A stretch of DNA of 32,000 bases from Hyperthermus butylicus DSM 5456 (GTDB lineage Archaea; Thermoproteota; Thermoprotei_A; Sulfolobales; Pyrodictiaceae), in NCBI RefSeq assembly GCF_000015145.1, contig NC_008818.1, positions 1,080,001 to 1,112,000 of the forward strand, written 5' to 3'. The translations under genes were made by a program, and so were the position numbers. The notes under the pieces are model-generated. The model had not been told where the DNA came from. It did no database searches and saw only the letters and a program-made list of their open reading frames with translations. Shown here piece after piece: positions 5,151 through 32,000 of this stretch (within the stretch, counting starts at the first letter, position 1; each line of letters opens with the position of its first letter).

Positions 5151-7969
5151 TACACCCATGTAGCTTCCCGCAAGCATTCTATGAGGAGGTCGCGCTGCTC
5201 CCTACCATAGTAGTATATCGTCATGCCCTGAGAAAGGGCACGGTCAATGTGGGCTAGTACTCGGTGAGCTATCTCCGACGCCGAATCGAGCGAAACCCTG
5301 CCCTTGATAACGTCTATTCGGGGTTCCTCGCCATCAAAGCTAGCCACAGCAGCCACAACAGCTGAGCCAGCACTGGAGTCTATGGTTTCGTATACGGCTG
5401 CTATACTGGTTATCCCGTGGCTCCTACTCGGCCTCGGGTACTCGACCACAACCTCGCCGGCACGTAGCACTTCGCTTCCAGCAATAACCCTTGCAACCTG
5501 GGCTGCCAGCCTCTTCGCGCTCTCGAGGCTTACCTCGCCACGCATAATCCTCAGCGCAGACACAGGGTCAACAGCAGCTATGAGGGGGAGCGCTATGCCG
5601 GGCAGCTCGTATCTCTCAACATTCTCAGCCACCTCCAGCCAGTCAAGCTTGTCAAGAAGCCCTGCCGCCTCCCTCTCCCAGAGGTGTACGAGTTTGATAG
5701 GTCCAGCTGACACGACGCGGTAGCGGAGGAGGCCTAGGGGTATCGAGTAGCGCTCGTCGAGCCGGAGGTAGACTATGAGTAGGGCTAGTCCGAGCCTCAA
5801 GTCCTCGGCCCGGAGGGTGCCCGGTGCCTCGAAGACGTAGCCATAGGTGTAGTCGCGGTAGCGGCCAGCCACCGGCGCGTTAAGCTCTATACTTGCAACC
5901 TCATGGTAGACCCTCACACCATTAGGTGTCCTCGACAGCCTCGGCCTTGCACTCTCAACGAGCCACTCGACCTCGATAGGCTCCTCTACAAGCTCACCAA
6001 AGCCAGACGTTGGTGCCGAAACATTGAGCACTATGGCTGCTGTAACTCTGCCATAGCGGATGTCATCAGCTAGCCTTGGTGCCTCGCCCCATGCCTTTTT
6101 AATATCCTCGTACCTAGCTGCCGCCCTCGCCAACCACTCGTGGCCAGCTACTGCATCCTCAACGGGCTCCTCGTAGACACGGTACTCCCGCGGCTCGACA
6201 CGCACCACTAGAGCCTCCGTCATTGGGTCGAAGGCTCCCGGCTGATACTTCTCCACAACATCGCGGAGCGATGCTTCCTCGCCGCGGAGTACTATTTCGC
6301 GGTCGCCACGCACGAGTACCTTCCGATACCCATACGGTGGGCCGTGCTCGTAGAAGCCTATGTCGTTCCAAAACGCCTTACCCCTCTTGCTCAGCGTTAG
6401 CCTCCGCTCGCCGAGCGCAGTAGTGTACTCCTCTACGAAACCGAATTTACGAAGAAGCTTCTCTTCATCACTGCTCAGCTCTAGACCGCGGAGAAGCCTC
6501 CACATAGCCTTGAATATCGTAGCGTAGGCGTTTGACGGGTTTATGTATAGCTTCTCGAGGGGCAAGCCAAGCCACTCGCGTAGCGCACTACTACCGGTCT
6601 CGAGGAGCTTTCTATCCCAGAGACCGGAGGGAATAACTATGGACTCCGTTACGCCTAGTTCTTTCCGGCGGCCCTTGCGGCCCTCCCTCTGCATGTACTC
6701 TCTCAGGTCGGCAGGAAGCCCTACATGTACGACCCGGTACACCGTACCTATGTCTATTCCCTGGGCTAGCGTCCTCACAGTAATTATCAGCGCTACCCGG
6801 CCCTCCCTCGCCGCCGCCTCCAGCTGTTCGCGTTTCTCCTTCGACACGAGGTGATGGTGTATGCCGACTAGGCCACGCTTCCCGGGGGGAAGCCTTTCAA
6901 GAAGGCTCCGGTAGAGCCTCTCAGCCATCCGGATACTCCTGGTGAACACCAGGGTAACCCTGCCTGGCTCAGAGGCATCCAACACGGCCTGGAGGATCTC
7001 CACTGGGTCCATGCCGGGCCTGGGCGGTCTAAGCCCTATGGCTTCCAGAGCCTCGTATATCTCGTACATGTGCTCCCTAAACTCTTCGTCGTCCCCCACA
7101 ATGTCTAGTATCCATGGAGCCCTAGAGGCTATGACTGACGCGTAAGCCCTCACATAGTCCCGTAGCGCCTCGAACCCCTTACCTAGGACTATTATGGTCC
7201 TATTCCGTGTCTTGAACGGCTTACCCTCTATGATGCTTGTATCCCTACCCGTAATGTCCGTGAGGAGTTTCGCCAACTCGCCAGGGTTGCCTAGGGTAGC
7301 TGAGAGCACTACTACTCGGGGAGACTTGGAAGCTAAGTGCTTTGAGACCAGCTCCACTATCGCTAGGAGGAGATGAGCACCGCGGGGCCCATAGAAGTCT
7401 AGCTCGTCGAAAACCATGAGGTCTACCGACGTAAGGAAGTCCTCTAGGAGGGCGCGGTTAGGGTGCATAGCTAGCCTCTTCATCTCCGCGAGGAGGAATG
7501 CTGGGTTTGTAACTACAACCATAGCCTTGGAGAGCTGGCGTAGCAGCTCGTCGCCGCGTCGCCCCCGCTTCTCGATACTAGGCCTATCAATACGCACTAC
7601 CGCATCCCGGTAGCCGGCGGCGCGATAGTATTCTTCGAGCCTCCTTATCTGGTCAGCTGCAAGTGCCAGGGTAGGGTAGACGGCGAGCACTCTCCAGCCG
7701 TGGCGGAGGGCTGCGAGAGCCCACGCCTCCGTTTTTCCGGAACCCGTGCGTGCCGTTAGTATTACGTTCCTACCCTGCTCGAGAGCCTCTATGGCCTCTA
7801 GCTGGTGGCGGTAGAGTTTCAGCCTGGCCTTTTCATGACCGGAGAGTCGCGGGACTATATCCGAGAAAGTCTTGTCGGACTGCTCGGGCTCCTCGGGAGG
7901 CTCCTCCCACACGAGAACCTCGTAGCCCAGGCTCCTTAGCAGCGATGCAATCCTTCCATGCCTTGCCAA
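5150..7969 (-). CDS. Superfamily-2 DExD/H helicase, COG1205 (YprA/MrfA-like) type core with a ~450-aa uncharacterised C-terminal region
   Basis: Motif I is 'TARTGSGKTEA' and Ia is 'VYPTLALAADQ' (compare MrfA-type 'PTKALAQDQ'). Motif II is 'VFDELDFYGPRGAH' (compare 'DELHxYxGxxGsH'), III is 'LSATLGNP', V is 'TLAQGIDIG' and VI is 'QREGRKGRR'. The TTG start at 7969 is uncertain. Confidence 0.8.
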   Translation of the reverse strand: MARHGRIASLLRSLGYEVLVWEEPPEEPEQSDKTFSDIVPRLSGHEKARLKLYRHQLEAIEALEQGRNVILTARTGSGKTEAWALAALRHGWRVLAVYPTLALAADQIRRLEEYYRAAGYRDAVVRIDRPSIEKRGRRGDELLRQLSKAMVVVTNPAFLLAEMKRLAMHPNRALLEDFLTSVDLMVFDELDFYGPRGAHLLLAIVELVSKHLASKSPRVVVLSATLGNPGELAKLLTDITGRDTSIIEGKPFKTRNRTIIVLGKGFEALRDYVRAYASVIASRAPWILDIVGDDEEFREHMYEIYEALEAIGLRPPRPGMDPVEILQAVLDASEPGRVTLVFTRSIRMAERLYRSLLERLPPGKRGLVGIHHHLVSKEKREQLEAAAREGRVALIITVRTLAQGIDIGTVYRVVHVGLPADLREYMQREGRKGRRKELGVTESIVIPSGLWDRKLLETGSSALREWLGLPLEKLYINPSNAYATIFKAMWRLLRGLELSSDEEKLLRKFGFVEEYTTALGERRLTLSKRGKAFWNDIGFYEHGPPYGYRKVLVRGDREIVLRGEEASLRDVVEKYQPGAFDPMTEALVVRVEPREYRVYEEPVEDAVAGHEWLARAAARYEDIKKAWGEAPRLADDIRYGRVTAAIVLNVSAPTSGFGELVEEPIEVEWLVESARPRLSRTPNGVRVYHEVASIELNAPVAGRYRDYTYGYVFEAPGTLRAEDLRLGLALLIVYLRLDERYSIPLGLLRYRVVSAGPIKLVHLWEREAAGLLDKLDWLEVAENVERYELPGIALPLIAAVDPVSALRIMRGEVSLESAKRLAAQVARVIAGSEVLRAGEVVVEYPRPSRSHGITSIAAVYETIDSSAGSAVVAAVASFDGEEPRIDVIKGRVSLDSASEIAHRVLAHIDRALSQGMTIYYYGREQRDLLIECLREATWV

Positions 7970-15206: not shown

Positions 15207-16601
15207 GTGGAGACTCTGGGCAAGCTCTTCGGCACGGACGGTGTTAGGGGTGTTCTGAACCGGGAGCTTACGCCAGAGCTAGCGTTACGGCTTGGCCAGG
15301 CGATAGCTACGTACTTTGGTGAGGGAGCAACAGTTCTCGTCGCTAGGGACGCCCGTGCCGGCGGCGAGATGATACTAAATGCTGTTGTTGCAGGCCTGCT
15401 CTCTGCCGGAGCCAGGGTTCATGTCGCATGGCCGGACGGCTATGCTACCACGCCAGCCGTACAGTATGCCGTGAAGGAGCTGGGCTACGACTATGGCGTA
15501 ATAGTTACAGCTAGCCATAACCCGCCAGAGTATAATGGCGTCAAGGTCGTAGGCCCTCTAGGCATAGAGGTTGACCGGGAGACAGAGGCGAGGATAGAGG
15601 ATATATTCTTCTCAGAGAGGTTCCACAGAACACCGTGGCACCGGGCAGCCTACGAGGTGCCACGCGAACACCGCGTAATTGAAACCTACGTGAAGGGCGT
15701 TGTTGAGAAGGTTGATGCTCCCGCTATACGCAGGAGGGGGTTCCGCGTCCTCGTAGACTGCGCCAACAGCGTCTCATCGCTTACAACACCCAAGATACTG
15801 CGGGCGCTAGGCGTTAAGCCATACACGCTAGGCTGCAACCTAGATCCCTACCCATACCGGGAGCCCGAGCCTACGCCATCAAGCCTAGCAGAAGCGGCAG
15901 CTATCGTGCGGAGCCTAGGCCTAGACTTTGGTGTGGGCCACGACGGGGACGGCGACCGAGCAATAATCATAGATGAGAGGGGCGAGGTCTGGTGGGGCGA
16001 CAGGACGGGCACCATACTAGCAGAATTCATTGCCGAGCACAAGCTCCCAGCAGCACCTAAGAAGCTCTACACCGCTGTCTCTAGCAGCAAGCTGGTAGAG
16101 GATTACCTCCGGCCCAAGGGGATTGAGGTTGTCTGGGTTCCCGTAGGCACGATAAATATCAGCTATCGGATGCTCGAGGAGGGTGGCATAGCAGGCTTCG
16201 AGGAGAACGGCGGCTTCATATACCCAGCACATCTCCTGGCAAGAGATGGTGGCATGACCCTAGCACTATTCCTGGAGCTGCTAGCCAAGGAGGGCAAGCC
16301 AGCCTCAGAGGTCCTCGGCAGGTTGCCGCGGTACTATGCTGTTAAGCTCAAGGTGCCGATGGACCGGCAGAAGGCGCTAAGGGTTGTCGAGGCGCTGCGC
16401 GAGGAGTATAGCGGAAAACCAGGCTACCGCGTCATAACAATTGACGGTGTGCGAATCGAAGCGGAGGACTACTGGTTCCTTGTGAGGCCTAGTGGCACAG
16501 AGCCAGTGCTAAGGATAATGGTTGAAGCATCCACACCCGAAAAGGCTAAGGAGATAGCAGAGGCGCTTAGAGAGAAGGCTAGGAGGCTGGCAGGGGGATG
16601 A
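15207..16601 (+). CDS. glmM: Alpha-D-phosphohexomutase (phosphoglucosamine mutase / phosphomannomutase)
   Basis: It has 'FGTDGVRG', the active-site loop 'TASHNPPEYNGVK', the metal loop 'GVGHDGDGDR', and 'VRPSGTEPVLRIMVEA'. Substrate specificity (GlcN, Man or Glc) cannot be read from the sequence. Confidence 0.85.
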   Translation: METLGKLFGTDGVRGVLNRELTPELALRLGQAIATYFGEGATVLVARDARAGGEMILNAVVAGLLSAGARVHVAWPDGYATTPAVQYAVKELGYDYGVIVTASHNPPEYNGVKVVGPLGIEVDRETEARIEDIFFSERFHRTPWHRAAYEVPREHRVIETYVKGVVEKVDAPAIRRRGFRVLVDCANSVSSLTTPKILRALGVKPYTLGCNLDPYPYREPEPTPSSLAEAAAIVRSLGLDFGVGHDGDGDRAIIIDERGEVWWGDRTGTILAEFIAEHKLPAAPKKLYTAVSSSKLVEDYLRPKGIEVVWVPVGTINISYRMLEEGGIAGFEENGGFIYPAHLLARDGGMTLALFLELLAKEGKPASEVLGRLPRYYAVKLKVPMDRQKALRVVEALREEYSGKPGYRVITIDGVRIEAEDYWFLVRPSGTEPVLRIMVEASTPEKAKEIAEALREKARRLAGG

Positions 16602-19886: not shown

Positions 19887-20324
19887 GTGGTTGACCCGGA
19901 GGCTAAGCTGCTCTACGACTACGACCACCTGCTTAGCAGACTGTATAGTAGACTGCCAACTAGGACGGGTAAGGCTTCGAGATTCGAGCTTCCGAGACTG
20001 CAGGTAGAGCGCATAGGTTCGAAGACCATTATCAGGAACTTCAAACAGCTAGCAGATGTTATGAGGCGTGAGCCACGGATACTCATGCGCTACCTGCTAA
20101 AGGAGCTTGGCGCTAGTGGCAACTACGACGAGGAGAACGGTATGCTAGTGATAAACGTCAAAGTCTCAATCACGACACTCAATAACCTCATGCAAAGGTT
20201 CGTTAAGACCTACGTTATATGCCCAACCTGTGGCGCCCCTGACACCAGGCTTGAGAGGAGGGGTAAGGCCTGGGTACTCATCTGCGAAGCTTGTGGCGCA
20301 GAGCAGCCCGTACCACCACTATAG
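19887..20324 (+). CDS. eif2b: Translation initiation factor aIF2 beta subunit
   Basis: It has 'YDYDHLLSRLYSRLP...RFELPRLQVERIGSKTIIRNF' and the C-terminal zinc ribbon 'CPTCGAPDTRLERRGKAWVLICEACGA'. GTG 19887 is preceded by the SD-like GGAGGGAG (19873..19880) and by TATA-like 'taatatta' (about 19812..19819). The track start at 19827 would add 20 atypical residues. Confidence 0.9.
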   Translation: MVDPEAKLLYDYDHLLSRLYSRLPTRTGKASRFELPRLQVERIGSKTIIRNFKQLADVMRREPRILMRYLLKELGASGNYDEENGMLVINVKVSITTLNNLMQRFVKTYVICPTCGAPDTRLERRGKAWVLICEACGAEQPVPPL

Positions 20325-20358
20325 CCCGAGCCGCCCAGGCCTACGGGATGGAGTAGTC

Positions 20359-21093
20359 ATGCTTAGGAGTCTAGCTGCAAGGTTTCTAAGAGGCAAAGTT
20401 TCCAGGGGGAGACTCCCCCGCCACATAGCCATCATACCTGACGGCAATCGTAGGTGGGCGCGCAAGCAAGGCCTTCCAGTTTATGCCGGCCACGCTGCCG
20501 GGTATCGTGTGGCACGGCGTACCCTCGACCTCCTCTGGGAGCTAGGCGTGGACTACGTGACGTTCTATGCGCTCTCCCGTGAGAACTGCCTACGGAGGCC
20601 CCTTGAGGAGCGCGAGCACCTCTACAAGCTCCTGCTAAGGGCTATAGATGACCTTCTCACGGATCCCCGTGTAGTCAACGGTAGTGTCCGCGTATACTTT
20701 GTTGGCGACTTTACACTACTGCCGGGTCAGCTCGCTGAAAGGCTAGAGGAGGTTAATGCTGCCACAGCCACTAATGGACCCAATGTACTGACTATAGCGA
20801 CTTGTTATGGTGGCCGTTGGGAGGTTCTCGAGACACTACGCAGCCTAGCCACAAAGGGATTTGTGCCCAACGATGAGGAGGAGCTGCGGAAGCTTATGCC
20901 TCTCGGCTTGCTCCCAGAGCCGGATCTGCTCATAAGGACTGGTGGAGAGTTACGGCTTAGCGGCTTCCTGCTATACCACGTAGCCTATACGGAGCTATAC
21001 TTCACTCGGCGCTTGTGGCCCGAGTTTGACGAGTTTGAGCTTCTTCGTGCTCTCCGCTCTTACCAGATGAGGGAGCGTAGGTTCGGGCGATAG
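20359..21093 (+). CDS. uppS: cis-Prenyltransferase (undecaprenyl/dehydrodolichyl diphosphate synthase family)
   Basis: It has 'HIAIIPDGNRRWA', 'TFYALSRENCLRP' and 'LLIRTGGELRLSGFLLYHVAYTELYF'. ATG 20359 avoids the overlap with aIF2-beta implied by the track start at 20230. Confidence 0.9.
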   Translation: MLRSLAARFLRGKVSRGRLPRHIAIIPDGNRRWARKQGLPVYAGHAAGYRVARRTLDLLWELGVDYVTFYALSRENCLRRPLEEREHLYKLLLRAIDDLLTDPRVVNGSVRVYFVGDFTLLPGQLAERLEEVNAATATNGPNVLTIATCYGGRWEVLETLRSLATKGFVPNDEEELRKLMPLGLLPEPDLLIRTGGELRLSGFLLYHVAYTELYFTRRLWPEFDEFELLRALRSYQMRERRFGR

Positions 21094-25887: not shown

Positions 25888-26746
25888 GCCTACACCACCC
25901 AGGCCTGGAGACGGATAGCGTGAACCCTCTAATCAACTACACAGAGAACCAAACCAGCACACCTCCGCACCGGCATGTAGGGTGGGAAGGGGCTAGCACG
26001 AAGCTAGCTCGCTTTTAAGCATTAGAACCGCGGGAGCTGGTACTGAAGCTGCCACTGCAAGCTGAAGGGGCCGTATAGGCTTCGCCTAGAACAGCATGCT
26101 TACAGCCACCAGTTATGACAGTACTAGGCTTGCAGCTGGGAGACAAGTACCCCCAAAGACCGAGTATAGAGACGATACGGGACAGTTTCTATGCGCCGTT
26201 TGCCCCATACTGGGCGATGAGTACTCGAAAGAGCTAAAATACATCGTCTCGCTATAGCATGAAGCACGCTGCTACATATCCATACCCTCATGGAACTAGT
26301 GTGTCAACCTAGTTGTTTACTATGCACTTAACTTGCTCCCTGAGGGTGATGCTGCTTCCCGCCGAGAAGCTGCTTGCGAGGCTTATACGTATGCGGGTGG
26401 ATATGGGTTTAGAGATGCAATATTCCACGAAAGCTACGAGGCCTACAAGCTCTTGCTAGCTATGTACCTCTAACGTATACTCAGGACGGTCAACTTCTGG
26501 TGTCACAGACCGGTACGAGCTAATTGTCGGCAAATGTTACAAGCTACTTGCACAGCTACAGCAAGGAAATGGAAGCATCGTTACACACTATCATGCAGAG
26601 AATGGAGAAGTGATGCCGGTAGGGGACATAATCATCGAAACTACAAAACATCACCATGTCAGCTCTCCACCTCAAACTACCTACCATTTCTGTTAAGAAA
26701 CCCTAGAACAGGAATGACAGAACAACCCCTTGAGAATGGAGCTTTC

Positions 26747-27484
26747 TCAGTCCTGCCGACTTGCCTCCACATGTTGTGCCGCTTCGGATATTGTTACCAG
26801 CGTGTAGCCTTTCCCGCGGAGGTATCCTATGAGCTTCCTTAGCAGCTCTAGTGCAGCCTCCCCAGTGTTGTAGCGACAGTCTACTCTTACCCTCGCCCAG
26901 CTCATATCTATGTACTCCCAGGGATGGGCAAAGTATATCCTTAGTCCTCTTGGCAGCACGTCGTGTATCCTCTTTTGGATGCGCCACGGCAGCCGCAGCA
27001 TAGAGGATGTAACAGTCACTGGTAGCCTTACGATGCCATACTCTACCCTTGGCATGGCGCGGAACGGAGGCTTGTAGAGGGCTATCGACGAGTCCACCTG
27101 GTAGCCGAGTTTGTGGAGGACCGGTAAGAGGCTCTGTGGGAGCTTAAGGTTGGGGGCTCGAAAGCTTGTAAGCTGGTCCGTGAACCTTCTGAGCTTAGCT
27201 GTGGCCTTCTCAAGTAGGCTTGCCACAGTACTTCCGGGTAGCTTATCTAGGCGTTCGTGGGCATAGCTATGGCAACCCAGCTCATGGCCCTCATCTACTA
27301 TCCTGCGTATTAGCTGGGGGTACCTCTCAGCTACGCGCGCTGTTGAGAAGAAAGTTGCCCTAACCCTCTCCTGGGATAGTATGTCAAGGATGTATGGGAG
27401 CCCTTCCTCTACCCCGCGGTAGCTCTCGCCGAGGTATGGCGGACAGTCCTGCTCCACGTCAAAGCTGAGTACTGCTATGCGCAA
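26747..27484 (-). CDS. CE4/NodB-type polysaccharide (GlcNAc) deacetylase
   Basis: It has 'RIAVLSFDVEQD' (motif 1 Asp), 'ELGCHSYAHERL' (HSxxH metal motif) and 'SFRAPNLKL' (RxPxx motif). TTG 27484 sits 10 nt after the GT4 stop and is preceded by GGTGAG. The track start at 27595 would add 37 residues overlapping the GT4 gene. Confidence 0.7.
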   Translation of the reverse strand: MRIAVLSFDVEQDCPPYLGESYRGVEEGLPYILDILSQERVRATFFSTARVAERYPQLIRRIVDEGHELGCHSYAHERLDKLPGSTVASLLEKATAKLRRFTDQLTSFRAPNLKLPQSLLPVLHKLGYQVDSSIALYKPPFRAMPRVEYGIVRLPVTVTSSMLRLPWRIQKRIHDVLPRGLRIYFAHPWEYIDMSWARVRVDCRYNTGEAALELLRKLIGYLRGKGYTLVTISEAAQHVEASRQD

Positions 27485-27494
27485 ACCGGACTGC

Positions 27495-28742
27495 TCACCT
27501 TCCAAGAATCCTTGATACCCGGAGCCAGGCACGGTATAGGAGGTAGCGTTTATCGCTGTCCATAGCCGCGTCCATGGTAGCCCTATACACCTCAACGATG
27601 CTTCTGGCTATCCTCGTCCAGGAGAAGTTCTCTGCAGCATGTAGCGGGGCTGTCTCTGCGAGTCTACGGTGCAGGTTAGGATCTAGGGCTAGCTCGGCTA
27701 TCCTCTCCGATGCCTCCTCATCAGAGGATACAAGGAACCCGGTACGACCATCAGCTACAACGTCCTCTATTCCGCCATCACGGAACCCTATTACTGGTCT
27801 GCCACAAGCCATGGCCTCGAGGGCTGCTATCGAGAATGCCTCCAGCCTCGCCGGCACGAGTAGAAGATCCGAAGCCCAGTAAGCCTCTCGCAGCCCAGCA
27901 CGACCCATAAAACCGTGAACGGTTACCCTTACACCATCCAGGCCATAGAGGTGCTCCTCAACAGCTCGTAGAACCTTGCTGCGCAGCGGACCATCACCAA
28001 TAATGAGGAGGTGAAGTCGCCTCCTCCCAGCAACTATCTTGGCAGCGTAAGCCACGATTGCAGGAGCTTGGTGTATCCGTTTGCGCTCCGTAAACCTCCC
28101 AACCACTAGGACCACAAACTCGCGCTCATCTAGGCCAAGCTTTCTCCGGGCAGCCCTCTCCTCCTCAGCTTCTGGCGGCCTCCAGAACCCCGTGTTAACC
28201 CCATTGGGGATAATGTAGAGGGGAACCTTGCCATCGACTATGCCTAGGAGCCGCCTCGTATCCTCCGCTACCCGGCGGCTAACAGCTATGAATGCATCCA
28301 CCCGTTTCAGCGTATTACGAAGGAGCGGTATGAGGGGCTTAGTGACGGGAGACCAGTAGTAGAGGGAGTGGTTGGTAGCGACTACTGGTACGCCGCGGAT
28401 ACCCCTGGAGAGATTGGCCGCTGCAACAGCGAATGGCGAATATATGCTGTGTATATGCGTGATGTCAAAGCCTATAGTCTTGTAGAGCCGGTTGAGCTTG
28501 AAGAGCGTATCCACTCCGAGGCTTACATGGCTCTTGCGAAAGTAGAAGAAACCCTTAATCCTGTGCACAGCATAAGGGAAATCATCACGATAGGGCTTCA
28601 TGTAGCGATAGTCGTGGGTTATAACGTGAGGCTCATGACCCATCTCGAGGAGTTGGAGTGCAAGCTCGTGTATATGTGTCTCGATGCCTCCTATCTTTGG
28701 GTAGAACCAGTCTGACGCCAACGCAACCTTAAGAGCGTCCAA
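27495..28742 (-). CDS. GT4 (GT-B) glycosyltransferase, PIG-A/GPI3-like
   Basis: 'SDWFYPKIGGIETHIHELALQLLEMGHEPHVITH', 'ITHIHSIYSP...VVATNHSLY' and 'EAFSIAALEAMACGRPVIG' are present. The N- and C-terminal blocks resemble human PIG-A as I remember it ('[34 protein letters not shown]', 'FTDHSLF', 'TWRNVAERTEKVY...DKRL'). Confidence 0.8.
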   Translation of the reverse strand: MDALKVALASDWFYPKIGGIETHIHELALQLLEMGHEPHVITHDYRYMKPYRDDFPYAVHRIKGFFYFRKSHVSLGVDTLFKLNRLYKTIGFDITHIHSIYSPFAVAAANLSRGIRGVPVVATNHSLYYWSPVTKPLIPLLRNTLKRVDAFIAVSRRVAEDTRRLLGIVDGKVPLYIIPNGVNTGFWRPPEAEEERAARRKLGLDEREFVVLVVGRFTERKRIHQAPAIVAYAAKIVAGRRRLHLLIIGDGPLRSKVLRAVEEHLYGLDGVRVTVHGFMGRAGLREAYWASDLLLVPARLEAFSIAALEAMACGRPVIGFRDGGIEDVVADGRTGFLVSSDEEASERIAELALDPNLHRRLAETAPLHAAENFSWTRIARSIVEVYRATMDAAMDSDKRYLLYRAWLRVSRILGR

Positions 28743-29620
28743 GCTTGCCGGCCTCCACCAATAGCAACAGCCAGCCCGCCCAATAGCGAGGCAAATACAT
28801 AGGAAATAAGCCTCTCTACCATGACTATAGCTAGTGCAGTACTAGCCGGTGCACCCAACGCCGTAAATACCGCTGTAAGACCACCCTCGACTATCCCTAG
28901 TCCGCCTGGCGTAAAGGCTACAAGGCCGATAACGAGATACATTACCGAGGCCAACACTATCCTGTAGACAGACGTATCCCACCCAACAGCTACAGCGATA
29001 AAATAAAACCTAGCAACATCAAGTAGCCAGACACCCGAGCTAAGCAACGCAGAGACAATAACGGCGACGCGGTCGCCGAGAAGCTTGCTGAGCCCAACGC
29101 TATTGCCTAGCTGTAACTTTTCGCGTGCACGAAACTTGTCGGCAATATATTCGAGAATACGATCCCAGTACTTGACGCCGACGAAAACACCAACTACTAT
29201 GAGTATCAGCGCAAAAACAATACCAAGCGGTAGGTCACCAGCGGCAAGTTCACCCGTAAGTGCAACTACTGCAATCACTGCAACAGGTATAGCCTCCACA
29301 ACACGTTCAAAGACTATACTGTTAACAATTGTGGGTATCGGCGCCTTCGTCTGAAGGTAGGCATAGGTTACGCGGATAACCTCGCCGCCGGCACGCATGC
29401 TCGGCGTAATATTGTTCACTAGGAACCCCATAAGATACCCCAGGAACGAGTCTTTAACGGGAAACCTTACACCCATCCGTGACAGTATAAAGCTCCAGCG
29501 CAGGGCATAAAGTAGCACCGAGACGATATAGGATACGAATGCTAGCCCGACATAGCGATGGTCGGCGTTGAGCATGATCCTTAAGGACTCGCTGAGACCT
29601 TGCCATAGTTCCTCGAACAA
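28691..29620 (-). CDS. UPF0104 / LPG_synthase_TM-family membrane protein (MprF flippase-domain family)
   Basis: 'LLYALRWSFILSRMG', 'FLVNNITPSMRAGGEVIRVTY' and 'VFERVVEAIP' are present, with ~8 TM helices. The TTG start has an in-frame TGA two codons upstream. It overlaps the GT4 gene by 52 nt. Confidence 0.7.
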   Translation of the reverse strand: MFEELWQGLSESLRIMLNADHRYVGLAFVSYIVSVLLYALRWSFILSRMGVRFPVKDSFLGYLMGFLVNNITPSMRAGGEVIRVTYAYLQTKAPIPTIVNSIVFERVVEAIPVAVIAVVALTGELAAGDLPLGIVFALILIVVGVFVGVKYWDRILEYIADKFRAREKLQLGNSVGLSKLLGDRVAVIVSALLSSGVWLLDVARFYFIAVAVGWDTSVYRIVLASVMYLVIGLVAFTPGGLGIVEGGLTAVFTALGAPASTALAIVMVERLISYVFASLLGGLAVAIGGGRQAWTLLRLRWRQTGSTQR

Positions 29621-29750
29621 GGACCCTCATCCCACTGGAATCAATGGGGCAGTGCCTTCCCTTCGCCACCAGGCAGGCTGAGAAGTGGCGGTATTGCTTA
29701 TTTTAAACCTATCCTATGGGAAAAATAGCGGTTTTACCAGGGACACACGT

Positions 29751-30176
29751 TTACAGCGTTATTATCACTGCTTTTGGTATGTAGTCCTGGAAAATGACAC
29801 GTATACGTGTCTCCACATCTATCTGTGCAAGCCTCTCAAGGCCTCTGCGTATAGCATGTAGCCTGGTTATCTTAGCATTTATGCTTTCAGCTATCTCTTC
29901 AAGCACTTCAAGTTCTGTTTTTGCCGTCGGGTTTAGCATTATCTTAACCTTCTCTATCTCTATAACCGTCTCCTTGGCTATTGGACTCTCCTCTATGGTG
30001 CCCCCAGCAAGGAAAGCTATGAGCTTAAGTAGCTTCTCATCACGCTCGCTCTTCGCCCTAAGCTCCTCTATGAGCCTTAGCAGCTCGCCCAGCTTGCGCC
30101 TCAAATCGTTTAGCATGTTGTCTATGTACTTTAGTAGCTCCTGTGGCGAGGAAAACTCTTGAATACCAATAGTCAA
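29751..30176 (-). CDS. Hypothetical coiled-coil protein (low-GC gene)
   Basis: A 141-aa helical, charged ORF ('LLKYIDNMLNDLRRKLGELLRLIEELRAKSERDEKLLKLI...'). TATA-like 'tataag' lies ~50 nt upstream on the minus strand, and a T5 run (ctatttttc on the minus strand) follows the stop. No family recognised. Confidence 0.4.
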   Translation of the reverse strand: MTIGIQEFSSPQELLKYIDNMLNDLRRKLGELLRLIEELRAKSERDEKLLKLIAFLAGGTIEESPIAKETVIEIEKVKIMLNPTAKTELEVLEEIAESINAKITRLHAIRRGLERLAQIDVETRIRVIFQDYIPKAVIITL

Positions 30177-30282
30177 GATCCTTTACCCAGTGCACTTAGC
30201 TGGCGTCGGGCCTCCTAAAAACTTATAGCTCTACGGGTAAAAACATATAACGTAAGACCTACCAGTGGGCTTTTTAACGCTG

Positions 30283-32000
30283 CTAGAACTCCTCCTCTGC
30301 AGCAAGCCTCATCATTAGTTTGGATAGGTAGTGCCTTATCACTATGAGTATTACTGCCGAAATTACTATCATTATTATGACGTTGAGGTAGCGGAGTAGT
30401 AGCGTCTGTATCGTCGGCTGCAGGGCTAACGTTACCGTGTCATCGGTCGTCAGTAATATGCTGGTACATGCCTGCCGGTAGCCCTTAGCCACTGCACAGA
30501 CTTGGTAGTTCGCGTTAGATGGCAATACTGCGTCAACAGTTCCATCTACTCCTGTCATAAGGGTGGAGGAGAATACTACGTCCATACCAGCAATGTTTAC
30601 TGTTGCTGCTGCAAGGCCTTTACCCTGATCGTTTTCCACTACTATGTGCAGTGTCCGCGGGGTTCTGGCTAGAGCTATTTCTAGCGTAGTGTTTGAAGGC
30701 TTTATCGTTATATTTACTGGCTGGTAGAAGTTCCTAGCAGACTCTATTGTTAGTACGGACCCGTTAACGTGTACCAGCAGTGTTAGGGTCTGTGGGGGGC
30801 CCGGGCTTATTCTTGCTACCTCCACCCCGTCGAGACGGACCACTATGCTATCGACTATCCTGTTCTCGAGCGCCAACTTGTCTAGAATTTTCGCTGTGAC
30901 CGGCATCCTTACTGTTGGAAGCCTAATGTCTAGAACACTGTTATCCCTTGCAAGGTATACTTCTCTCTCAACAACATCGAATATCTTAAACCCAGTGTTG
31001 TCATACGGTAGTGGGTCTATATGCAAGCGATAAGTGCCCTTGACGAGTGTAATAGTTGCTGTTGCATTCAGTACTAGCACGCTGCGGATCTTTTCGTCCT
31101 CGACGCGGTCTATTGTAACCCTTGCTGTAACAGGTATGGTTTCATTGCCTACTACGCCGGTTAGTCGCAGCGTTAGCCTATATGTTACTGGTTCGAGCTG
31201 TATCTCGACTGCTGCACCATTGTCGGTTACGTTTACTGTCCTGGTTAGAGGCTTGAAGAATGGGTCCTCGCCCGCGGGGTGCAGCGGTGTTACCTCTATC
31301 GTCGCGCTGCCGCGGTGCTGTGTCTGGAAGGAGATCAAGTAGGGTCTATCAGCCTCAATACCGTAGAACTCTTGCTCGTATAGTACGCGGTTGTCGCCCA
31401 CCACCCTTAGCCTTATACCATCGCCTTTCGGTGTTGTATATTGCGATGCCAGTGTCACTATGACTGCAACGTTTATCCTTTCAAGGGTTACTATTACGTC
31501 CCTATCAGAGTCCATGCAGATTCTCGTTGTTGCCTCCCGGTAGAGTCCACCCCCGACTTCTCGCACGACGATAGTGTAGTTGCCGGGAAGTAGTTCGCTT
31601 AGCTCTATGCTCCTTGTGCCCGAGGGGTAGGTTGCGCTTATGGTTCTGGATCTCTTTTCGTCTATCAGCTGTACTGTGAGGTTGCGTATTGGCGGCTTAT
31701 TGGTATAGCTATCTACGAGGTGTAATACCAACGTGAACCTCTTATAGGGGACTGTGAGTGTTACATTACTCTTGCCCGCGCATAGTATTTTGTAGCTGCT
31801 TGGCTCGTAGATAGGCTCTTTAGGAGCTACAGTGATCTCTAGTATGCCTGGCTCCATGCATGGTGCTTCTATTGTTGGTCCGGCCTCCACGTATGATATG
31901 CTGTCTACAACCGTATTGTTTACGTAGAGTGTTGCCGCGACTGTGAGGTTTTCAAGTGGCTCGCCGTCTTCGTTAACGAAGCTTATTGACAGCGTTCTAA
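30283..32000 (-). CDS. Large extracellular beta-rich protein with a C-terminal TM anchor (partial; N-terminus beyond the right edge)
   Basis: The frame stays open from 31890 up to 32000: hand translation gives ...FVNEDGEPLENLTVAATLYVNNTVVDSISYVEAGP..., so the track's GTG at 31890 is internal. It contains repeated ~90-aa beta-sandwich-like segments and 9+2 N-x-S/T sequons. The C-terminal helix is 'LNVIIMIVISAVILIVI', followed by a charged tail. Confidence 0.6.
   Translation of the reverse strand, partial: RTLSISFVNEDGEPLENLTVAATLYVNNTVVDSISYVEAGPTIEAPCMEPGILEITVAPKEPIYEPSSYKILCAGKSNVTLTVPYKRFTLVLHLVDSYTNKPPIRNLTVQLIDEKRSRTISATYPSGTRSIELSELLPGNYTIVVREVGGGLYREATTRICMDSDRDVIVTLERINVAVIVTLASQYTTPKGDGIRLRVVGDNRVLYEQEFYGIEADRPYLISFQTQHRGSATIEVTPLHPAGEDPFFKPLTRTVNVTDNGAAVEIQLEPVTYRLTLRLTGVVGNETIPVTARVTIDRVEDEKIRSVLVLNATATITLVKGTYRLHIDPLPYDNTGFKIFDVVEREVYLARDNSVLDIRLPTVRMPVTAKILDKLALENRIVDSIVVRLDGVEVARISPGPPQTLTLLVHVNGSVLTIESARNFYQPVNITIKPSNTTLEIALARTPRTLHIVVENDQGKGLAAATVNIAGMDVVFSSTLMTGVDGTVDAVLPSNANYQVCAVAKGYRQACTSILLTTDDTVTLALQPTIQTLLLRYLNVIIMIVISAVILIVIRHYLSKLMMRLAAEEEF

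Follow-up and report, generated by a model that had tools for sequence, protein, structure and literature searches.

A conserved archaeal flippase-glycosyltransferase-deacetylase gene cassette in Hyperthermus butylicus with a predicted role in amino-sugar phospholipid synthesis

Two bacterial operons have been described in which genes for a glycosyltransferase, a deacetylase and a flippase-like membrane protein serve the production of an amino-sugar membrane lipid. The gpgSDF operon of Pseudomonas aeruginosa encodes a family 4 glycosyltransferase (GT4), a deacetylase and a flippase-like COG0392 protein; it makes N-acetylglucosaminyl-phosphatidylglycerol (GlcNAc-PG) and then glucosaminyl-PG (GlcN-PG), mutation of the deacetylase gene makes the acetylated lipid build up, and in Escherichia coli the operon suffices (PMC12713373). 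The hexSDF operon of Clostridioides difficile, which encodes a glycosyltransferase, a polysaccharide deacetylase and an MprF-like flippase, is needed for aminohexosyl-hexosyl-diradylglycerol (PMC10128005). For archaea, Makarova, Galperin and Koonin listed in 2015 a neighbourhood of arCOG00899 with a polysaccharide deacetylase and a glycosyltransferase, exemplified by MA0797/MA0798; they described UPF0104 domains fused to the N-glycosylation enzyme AglD and assigned the context to 'glycosylation pathways' (PMC5898192). Here we describe this gene context in a 32,000-nt stretch of DNA from Hyperthermus butylicus (the window), in which three consecutive genes encode a UPF0104 membrane protein, a GT4 identical (100%) to ABM80938.1, and a deacetylase of carbohydrate esterase family 4 (CE4), and we propose a specific product for it.

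The H. butylicus genes are adjacent and co-directional and form a conserved unit, as do those of the S-D-F operons. Judged by sequence, the cassette combines a GT4 as in GpgSDF with a CE4 enzyme as in HexSDF. It has in common with GpgSDF the three adjacent genes for a GT4, a deacetylase and a UPF0104/COG0392 protein, as well as the predicted cytoplasmic location of transferase and deacetylase. The GpgSDF chemistry, in which GlcNAc is placed on a phospholipid head group and then deacetylated, goes with a scarce N-acetyl intermediate and an abundant amine, as is also seen among the lipids of Thermococcus barophilus (see below). The gene order is different (S-D-F versus F-S-D in the window), GpgD is a COG3233/DUF2334 protein whereas the window deacetylase is of the PF01522 NodB type, GpgSDF acts on a diacyl PG in a bacterial host, and the window GT4 reaches only 63 bits, against a cutoff of 480, on the GlcN-PG synthase (GpgS) model NF053787. 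In HexSDF, too, the genes for a glycosyltransferase, a CE4-family deacetylase and an MprF-like flippase make up an operon that is needed for an amino-sugar membrane lipid, but HexS is a predicted monogalactosyldiacylglycerol synthase rather than a PIG-A-like GT4, the acceptor is a neutral glycolipid, and a two-component system controls the operon. The Methanosarcina acetivorans copy of the cassette appears to be the MA0797/MA0798 locus, and the H. butylicus locus an orthologous copy of the arCOG00899/arCOG02876/arCOG01403 neighbourhood. That context is therefore known since 2015; the published account stayed with 'glycosylation pathways', with a flippase for lipid and/or S-layer glycan, and did not connect the context with a specific lipid, PIG-A or the S-D-F operons (PMC5898192). 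What is new is the proposal of a specific product for the archaeal variant of the transferase-deacetylase-flippase set.

We propose the following pathway. In the first step the GT4, as a peripheral cytoplasmic enzyme, would transfer alpha-GlcNAc from UDP-GlcNAc to an archaeal ether phospholipid at its head group; the likeliest acceptor is archaetidylinositol, which would yield GlcNAc-archaetidylinositol. In the second, the cytoplasmic CE4 metallo-deacetylase would remove the N-acetyl group and leave a zwitterionic GlcN-lipid, with a head group as in the core of glycosylphosphatidylinositol (GPI). In the third, the UPF0104 protein, a homologue of the flippase domain of MprF, would carry the GlcN-lipid to the outer leaflet. 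Donor, acceptor, order of steps and flipping are what we infer here. The general logic of transfer, de-N-acetylation and flipping of a lipid, which had been put forward in the initial annotation and has its precedents in HexSDF (PMC10128005) and GpgSDF (PMC12713373) with the same three parts, we regard as probable. Taken as a whole, with an inositol head group favoured, the scheme is about evenly balanced between right and wrong, and for inositol as the acceptor head group the chances are somewhat below even.

The three genes all lie on the minus strand. The flippase and GT4 genes overlap by 52 nt (28691-28742), and with the deacetylase start at 27484 the gap between the GT4 and CE4 genes is 10 nt (27485-27494). 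The longest open reading frame (ORF) of the deacetylase (26747-27595) would encode 282 amino acids; its start was placed at the TTG at 27484 because the NCBI protein (P0121, 245 amino acids) and all orthologues begin there. The NCBI proteins of H. butylicus are 309 (flippase), 415 (GT4) and 245 (CE4) amino acids long. The arrangement of co-directional genes with its overlap and gap, first noticed in the initial annotation, is thus borne out by the ORF list and the NCBI starts. The peptides quoted there (SDWFYPKIGGIETHIHELALQLLEMGHEPHVITH, ATNHSLY, FSWTRIARSIVEVY...DKRYL, FDVE, HSYAH and RAPN) all occur in the window translations, and the family assignments of the three proteins agree with matches to PF03706, PF13439/PF00534 and PF01522.

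Conservation of the trio was studied in a set of 79 loci containing a GT4 relative, which came from scanning one genome of each prokaryotic species with a degenerate pattern. In all 79 loci ORFs were called and searched with the three window proteins, and all neighbours were clustered. The CE4 gene directly follows the GT4 gene in 46 of the 65 homologues with room downstream, and the flippase-like gene directly precedes it in 28 of the 41 CE4-linked loci with room upstream; the gene ends overlap or abut in nearly every case. The order flippase-GT4-CE4 was found in Pyrodictiaceae, other Desulfurococcales, Thermococcus, Hydrothermarchaeota, Methanococcoides and several uncultured lineages, as well as in M. 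acetivorans and in two complete genomes, those of Methanosarcina lacustris and T. barophilus MP. In T. barophilus MP it lies at about 677.7-680.6 kb of CP002372.1, and the M. acetivorans locus includes AAM04237.1. The same order occurs in a relative with 33% identity. Between H. butylicus and T. barophilus the identities are 33% (flippase), 42% (GT4) and 52% (CE4), those between H. butylicus and M. acetivorans 34%, 31% and 45%, respectively. An arrangement that dozens of loci, drawn from several archaeal phyla, repeat in the same order is far from chance, and the co-conservation on which the initial annotation had made its proposal depend is strong. Clustering of the neighbours revealed no gene besides the trio that the lineages share. 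AIR-synthase-like and radical SAM genes adjoining the cassette in Thermococcus were considered as further members and discarded as lineage-specific.

Variants of the locus were also seen. GT4-CE4 pairs without an adjacent flippase gene occur in Thermococcus (L011, L013, L016, L019), in Methanoperedens (L039-L043) and in L035 and L036; in the four Thermococcus loci the AIR-synthase-like gene and the GT4 gene stand side by side with no flippase gene in between. A complete cassette is present on a contig binned as Thermodesulfobacteriaceae (L033), and three close CE4 orthologues (P0166, P0251 and P0348, 44-51% identical to the window CE4) carry labels of gammaproteobacterial or deltaproteobacterial metagenome-assembled genomes (MAGs); such bacterial labels could reflect transfer to bacteria or mis-binning. 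Two UbiA prenyltransferases are encoded near the M. acetivorans cassette (L080, 12836-14717), and a GT2 protein with weak DUF2334 and Polysacc_deac matches near that of M. lacustris (L081, 10554-11981).

The deacetylase matches PF01522 with 78.6 bits (cutoff 23.1, E=5e-22). The catalytic and metal-binding positions are all retained across 20 orthologues, in which D9-V-E11, D13, H72...H76, R109-A-P-N112, D131 and H187-P-W-E190 are invariant, the first motif being DVE in place of the canonical DD. An AlphaFold2 (AF2) model (pLDDT 93.6) has the NodB fold and matches CE4 structures, among them ArnD (TMq 0.70). Neither the deacetylase nor the GT4 has a transmembrane (TM) segment or a signal peptide, and therefore both should act at the cytoplasmic side.

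The GT4 matches PF13439 (120 bits, E=1e-34) and PF00534 (105 bits, E=4e-30), and E301 and E309 of the E-x7-E motif are invariant among 56 sequences. Its AF2 model (pLDDT 96.5) shows the GT-B fold, with TM scores of 0.74-0.87 to GT4 structures; the nearest solved relatives in the Protein Data Bank (PDB) are BshA, MshA, GlgM and PimB'. By analogy with BshA and MshA the donor is probably UDP-GlcNAc; the acceptor of MshA is inositol phosphate. The best NCBIfam match is BshA (TIGR03999, 130 bits, cutoff 274), and the MshA model TIGR03449 gives 97 bits (cutoff 462). BshA, MshA, GpgS, Agl16 and monoglucosyldiacylglycerol (MGlcDAG) synthase were all rejected as the identity of the protein, the scores being far under the equivalog cutoffs. 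Its C-terminal tail DKRYLLYRAWLRVSRILGR has a net charge of +5 and is helical in the model (residues 401-413). The basic helix is conserved among the orthologues and absent from proteins of BshA length; as modelled, it fits an action at the membrane surface.

The flippase-like protein, named flippase-like domain-containing protein by NCBI (ABM80939.1), matches PF03706 LPG_synthase_TM with 164 bits (cutoff 33.4, E=6e-48) and the 'flippase-like domain' model TIGR00374 with 138 bits (cutoff 43.2). At least seven hydrophobic segments give it the polytopic topology of the UPF0104 family. On the model of bifunctional MprF (NF033480) it scores just 31 bits against a cutoff of 600, which places it outside MprF proper and indicates that the C-terminal aminoacyl-PG synthase domain is absent from this 309-residue protein. 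A sequence search of the PDB gave no useful match for it.

A functional connection between flippase and transferase is also suggested by a gene fusion. At L084 (794-3728), P0115 is a single protein of 726 amino acids consisting of a flippase-like domain followed by a GT4, and 5 nt downstream of its gene lies a gene of the PIG-L family (PF02585), whose best model is MshB (119 bits), a GlcNAc-inositol deacetylase. The contig is probably bacterial, because its G+C content is 72%, and going by sequence the locus may specify a pathway for a GlcN-phosphatidylinositol (PI)-type lipid in a high-GC bacterium. Thermococci also have a paralogous cassette (L054-L075; e.g. L055, 5094-7860). In it a UbiA prenyltransferase stands with another UPF0104 protein (PF03706, E=1e-23), with a GT4 paralogue and with an amidohydrolase of the creatininase family (PF02633, E=1e-63). 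The GT4 paralogue (~6001-7150, + strand) is 29-32% identical to the window GT4 and has the same SDWYYPKIGG motif. Since three unrelated hydrolase folds (CE4, PIG-L and creatininase family) occupy one slot, the simplest reading is that they share the N-deacylation of the transferred sugar, and the deacetylase slot is a clean case of non-orthologous displacement. The view that the CE4 enzyme stands in for one of PIG-L type, already expressed in the initial annotation, receives backing from the flippase-GT4 fusion with its PIG-L/MshB-like neighbour. The MAGs with the paralogous Thermococci cassette hold the CE4 cassette too; in Sulfolobales MAGs the paralogous GT4 was found without UbiA, UPF0104 or amidohydrolase neighbours.

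Lipids of the predicted kind are known from archaea that carry the cassette. An ether phospholipid with the GPI-core (GlcN-inositol) head group is reported for Methanosarcina barkeri (PMC2446393, citing Nishihara 1992), and the genomes of M. acetivorans and M. lacustris carry the cassette; in this sense the chemical precedent named in the initial annotation is sound. T. barophilus contains N-acetylhexosamine (HexNAc)-hexose (Hex)-P-archaeol in traces and the corresponding amine, HexNH2-Hex-P-archaeol, at 1.3% (PMC9294538). A trace of the HexNAc form beside an abundance of the amine is what one would expect if the former is an intermediate and the latter its product. Another study found the amine lipid in Thermococcus kodakarensis and did not detect it in Pyrococcus furiosus and Pyrococcus yayanosii (PMC7356043). 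The T. kodakarensis lipidome paper makes no mention of the cassette genes, our literature searches for a gene assignment of archaeal GlcN-inositol or hexosaminyl phospholipids found none, and a review from 2022 on archaeal phospholipid biosynthesis is silent on both glucosamine and flippases. The link between the cassette and hexosaminyl lipids is thus a correlative one, made through the genomes and lipids of T. barophilus and Methanosarcina, and on the lipid chemistry of these two both inositol and glucose head groups are possible acceptors.

In the eukaryotic GPI pathway PIG-A is a GT4 as well, with the signature D-[FTW]-[FHY]-[YFCP]-[PS]-x-x-[GD]-G-[VI]; deacetylation occurs on the cytoplasmic side before flipping, as the topology suggests also for the cassette, and the Methanosarcina product has the same head group. 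There are differences as well. The window GT4 is without a PF08288 (PIGA) match and lacks most of the eukaryotic motifs, no gene for an accessory subunit recurs among the conserved neighbours of the cassette, the deacetylase is a CE4 enzyme rather than one of LmbE/PIG-L fold, and the archaeal lipid is an isoprenoid ether. For flipping, the cassette offers a UPF0104 candidate, whereas in eukaryotes the scramblase CLPTM1L is reported to be required for efficient GPI biosynthesis (PMC9169118).

How close the window GT4 is to PIG-A was judged with the published PIG-A motifs, of which CM1, CM1a and CM1b are the most robust classifiers (Oswal 2008, PMC2446393). Four of the 27 motif variants match (CM1a, CM1d, CM5e and CM9ar). 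CM1a and CM1d are matched at DWFYPKIGGIETH, and BshA-like proteins match none of the CM1-type motifs; the strict eukaryotic CM1, CM1b and CM1c fail, since W replaces F and H replaces Y/F, and from CM2 to CM12 just CM5e and CM9ar are present. The M. acetivorans cassette GT4 matches eight 'ar' (archaeal-plus-eukaryotic) motifs. It is UniProt Q8TSJ8, 'N-acetylglucosaminyl-phosphatidylinositol biosynthetic protein', and on the strength of this name and the eight motifs it is probably the protein that has been called archaeal PIG-A. PIG-A activity has been demonstrated in no archaeon according to PMC2446393.

Several comparisons involved a eukaryotic enzyme and a wide sampling of GT4 proteins. An exhaustive search that used the GT4 alignment as profile and covered 1.84 billion representatives gave 795,520 matches, the best 150 of which were mostly multi-GT4 fusions with summed scores; because of this flooding the search did not reveal the rank of PIG-A, and only 38 single-domain matches were used, as additional tree taxa. 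As reference we employed a sequence taken to be human PIG-A, an identity validated by two checks only: it scores 143 bits over the full PF08288 model and matches all 12 published eukaryotic motifs. A more distant relative, P0104, scores 32 bits on PF08288. In BLASTP the window GT4 and this human PIG-A are 26% identical over 410 amino acids, end to end, and the latter scores 230 bits on a hidden Markov model (HMM) of CE4-linked cassette GT4s, compared with 160 bits on one of BshA-like proteins. In neighbour-joining (NJ) trees human PIG-A, as the single eukaryotic sequence, grouped with cassette GT4s and not with BshA-like proteins in 177 of 200 bootstrap replicates; after addition of the 38 representatives it paired with a CE4-linked Methanoperedens-type GT4 in 79 of 100 replicates, and not with the H. 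butylicus clade. The PIG-A likeness claimed in the initial annotation receives partial support from these comparisons. By these sequence comparisons the window GT4 belongs to the PIG-A-like neighbourhood of GT4; orthology to PIG-A is beyond what the data show. A side observation concerns L086-L088, where P0106, a GT4 of 30% identity with a weak PIGA-domain match, stands beside a second GT4 and a convergent UPF0104 gene; in this transferase-plus-flippase arrangement there is no deacetylase within the short contig.

The following observations weigh against the proposed GlcN-archaetidylinositol pathway. The window GT4 gave no match with PF08288 even at E<=10, and its relation to PIG-A was derived from NJ trees only, with one eukaryotic sequence and weakly supported deep nodes. 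As all NCBIfam equivalog cutoffs are missed, its acceptor and function are unreadable from GT4 homology. An adjacent flippase-like gene is absent from 13 CE4-linked GT4 loci. To our knowledge, flippase activity has been measured for no UPF0104 protein outside MprF. For GpgF it is untested by its authors' own statement (PMC12713373). There has been no experiment on archaeal members, and our searches found no polar-lipid data for H. butylicus. Finally, the inner sugar of the T. barophilus lipid is tentatively glucose, because acid hydrolysis released just glucose (PMC9294538).

The last of these points leads to the strongest competing explanation, namely that the same three steps operate on another acceptor. 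This could be archaetidylglucose (giving HexN-Glc-P-archaeol), archaetidylglycerol (giving the ether counterpart of GlcN-PG) or, as with HexSDF, a glycosyl-archaeol, and the product, an amino-glycolipid that modifies charge, would have no relation to the GPI core. The T. barophilus lipid was assigned as PGlcHexNH2 by its authors (PMC9294538), both characterised systems act on PG or a glycolipid and not on PI, the GT4 passes no equivalog cutoff, and the window GT4 clade is not the nearest to PIG-A. The glucose call is tentative, however, and no hexosamine was recovered from the hydrolysis either (PMC9294538); the head group of the Methanosarcina lipid is GlcN-inositol, the PIG-A N-terminal motif is present in the GT4, its score on the GlcN-PG synthase model is far below the cutoff, and the hydrolase at the fusion locus resembles MshB, which is specific for GlcNAc-inositol. 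We consider an acceptor other than archaetidylinositol rather unlikely, yet the first alternative to be kept in mind.

Alternatively, the cassette might take part in protein (S-layer) glycosylation, the GT4 extending a dolichyl-phosphate-linked glycan, the CE4 enzyme de-N-acetylating the lipid-linked sugar and the UPF0104 protein flipping the oligosaccharide. This would agree with the generic reading of the neighbourhood in 2015 and with the UPF0104-AglD fusions (PMC5898192), and large sequon-rich surface proteins are encoded next to the cassette in Pyrodictiaceae and two genes away from it in many Thermococcus loci. The structural match to ArnD points in the same direction. ArnD is a CE4 enzyme that acts on a polyprenyl-phosphate-linked sugar, on the cytoplasmic face and before a dedicated flippase exports the sugar-lipid; the Arn pathway (ArnC/ArnD/ArnEF) resembles the proposed one in that the CE4 enzyme strips an N-acyl group from a lipid-linked amino sugar, and differs in its GT2 transferase, its undecaprenyl phosphate carrier, the deformylation and the SMR-family flippase. 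Neither AglB nor a GT2 dolichyl-phosphate (Dol-P) glycosyltransferase nor any other agl gene is a conserved neighbour in any of about 50 loci, where just the trio travels together, and the surface-protein neighbours are non-homologous between lineages. Moreover, the nearest characterised three-part systems produce membrane lipids, and the nearest relatives of the GT4 use small acceptors of the head-group kind (malate, inositol phosphate, PI). Involvement in protein glycosylation is therefore improbable in our opinion.

A soluble route of the bacillithiol/mycothiol type, in which the GT4 makes GlcNAc-malate or GlcNAc-inositol phosphate, the CE4 enzyme deacetylates it toward a thiol or compatible solute and the membrane protein is an exporter or unrelated, has in its favour that BshA and then MshA are the best NCBIfam and PDB matches of the GT4 and that both BshA/BshB and MshA/MshB pair a UDP-GlcNAc-dependent GT4 with a de-N-acetylase, but it is highly improbable, as the scores are far under the equivalog cutoffs, these systems have soluble acceptors, deacetylases of LmbE fold instead of CE4 and no membrane partner, a BshC- or MshC-like ligase is encoded at no locus, the flippase-like gene is conserved, overlaps the GT4 gene and is fused to it in P0115, and the basic C-terminal helix of the GT4 is missing from proteins of BshA length. 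Thiol biosynthesis and likewise exopolysaccharide formation were rejected in view of the flippase fusion, the cytoplasmic CE4 enzyme and the missing ligase or synthase partners.

An ether lipid with the GPI core as head group was described in M. barkeri in 1992, and several Thermococcales were later found to contain hexosaminyl phospholipids. The pathway through GlcN-archaetidylinositol brings together four separate items: the neighbourhood that was listed in 2015 without a function, a 'PIG-A-like' annotation that is 20 years old, two recent studies of bacterial operons and the published lipidomes. Genetic tools exist for M. acetivorans and for Thermococcus, and the items together make one hypothesis that is testable in such organisms. 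If it is true, these would be the first genes for archaeal amino-sugar phospholipids, the large and uncharacterised UPF0104 family would gain a defined substrate in archaea, and the question of how the first GPI steps arose, flipping included, would have a concrete model in prokaryotes. A further-reaching and unlikely version is that the cassette is a prokaryotic module ancestral to the first three eukaryotic GPI steps, that GT4s of PIG-A type had in archaea already been joined with a de-N-acetylase and with a flippase dedicated to the GlcN-lipid, and that UPF0104 proteins are the archaeal flippases of GlcN-inositol lipids. Exported GlcN-archaetidylinositol would in that case be a primitive GPI-like platform, maybe one that is extended or that tethers the surface proteins encoded next to it.

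The features of the window are compiled in Table 1.

Table 1. Cassette genes, candidate promoter element and neighbouring genes in the H. butylicus window
Feature	Position	Strand	Remarks
UPF0104 / LPG_synthase_TM membrane protein, predicted flippase, cassette gene 1	28691-29620	-	309 aa; ABM80939.1
GT4 retaining glycosyltransferase, predicted UDP-GlcNAc:phospholipid head-group GlcNAc transferase	27495-28742	-	415 aa; PF13439 + PF00534
CE4/NodB-fold deacetylase, cytoplasmic, predicted GlcNAc-lipid -> GlcN-lipid de-N-acetylase	26747-27484	-	245 aa; PF01522
TATA-box-like element TTTAAAATA, candidate cassette promoter	29699-29707	-	read from sequence alone
uppS	20230-21093		neighbour gene
Phosphohexomutase	15207-16601		neighbour gene
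Sequon-rich surface protein	30283-31890		9 N-x-S/T sequons

The uppS, phosphohexomutase and surface-protein genes mentioned as nearby in the initial annotation are all present in the window, but in related genomes the surface-protein gene is the only one of them syntenic with the trio. As pathway partners uppS and the phosphohexomutase gene were discarded: they are 6-11 kb away, behind housekeeping genes, and show no synteny with the trio elsewhere. The approximately 860 nt on the 3' side of the CE4 gene (25888-26746) contain no convincing gene, the biggest ORFs (94 and 102 amino acids) overlapping the edge of this region or the CE4 gene. Its G+C content is below that of the neighbouring sequence (about 0.50), and no similarity was found to genes flanking the cassette at other loci. 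Scans of the whole window for tRNA genes and Rfam families gave no matches. The TATA-box-like element is situated 79 nt upstream of the TTG start of the flippase gene (29620), inside a 130-nt spacer, and may be the promoter of the cassette.

In Pyrodictiaceae (window positions 29751-31890; L002, L003, L012, L022, L028 and L052) the cassette is always preceded by genes for a 141-residue coiled-coil protein and the surface protein. The latter is large, rich in sequons and equipped with a C-terminal TM anchor, and it measures about 1118 amino acids in relatives compared with 535 for the window ORF; its sole Pfam match is CarboxypepD_reg. Many Thermococcus loci encode, three genes downstream of CE4, a different sequon-rich protein of about 618 amino acids with a signal peptide. 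The repeated closeness of the cassette to surface proteins may be a coincidence or may reflect a functional link.

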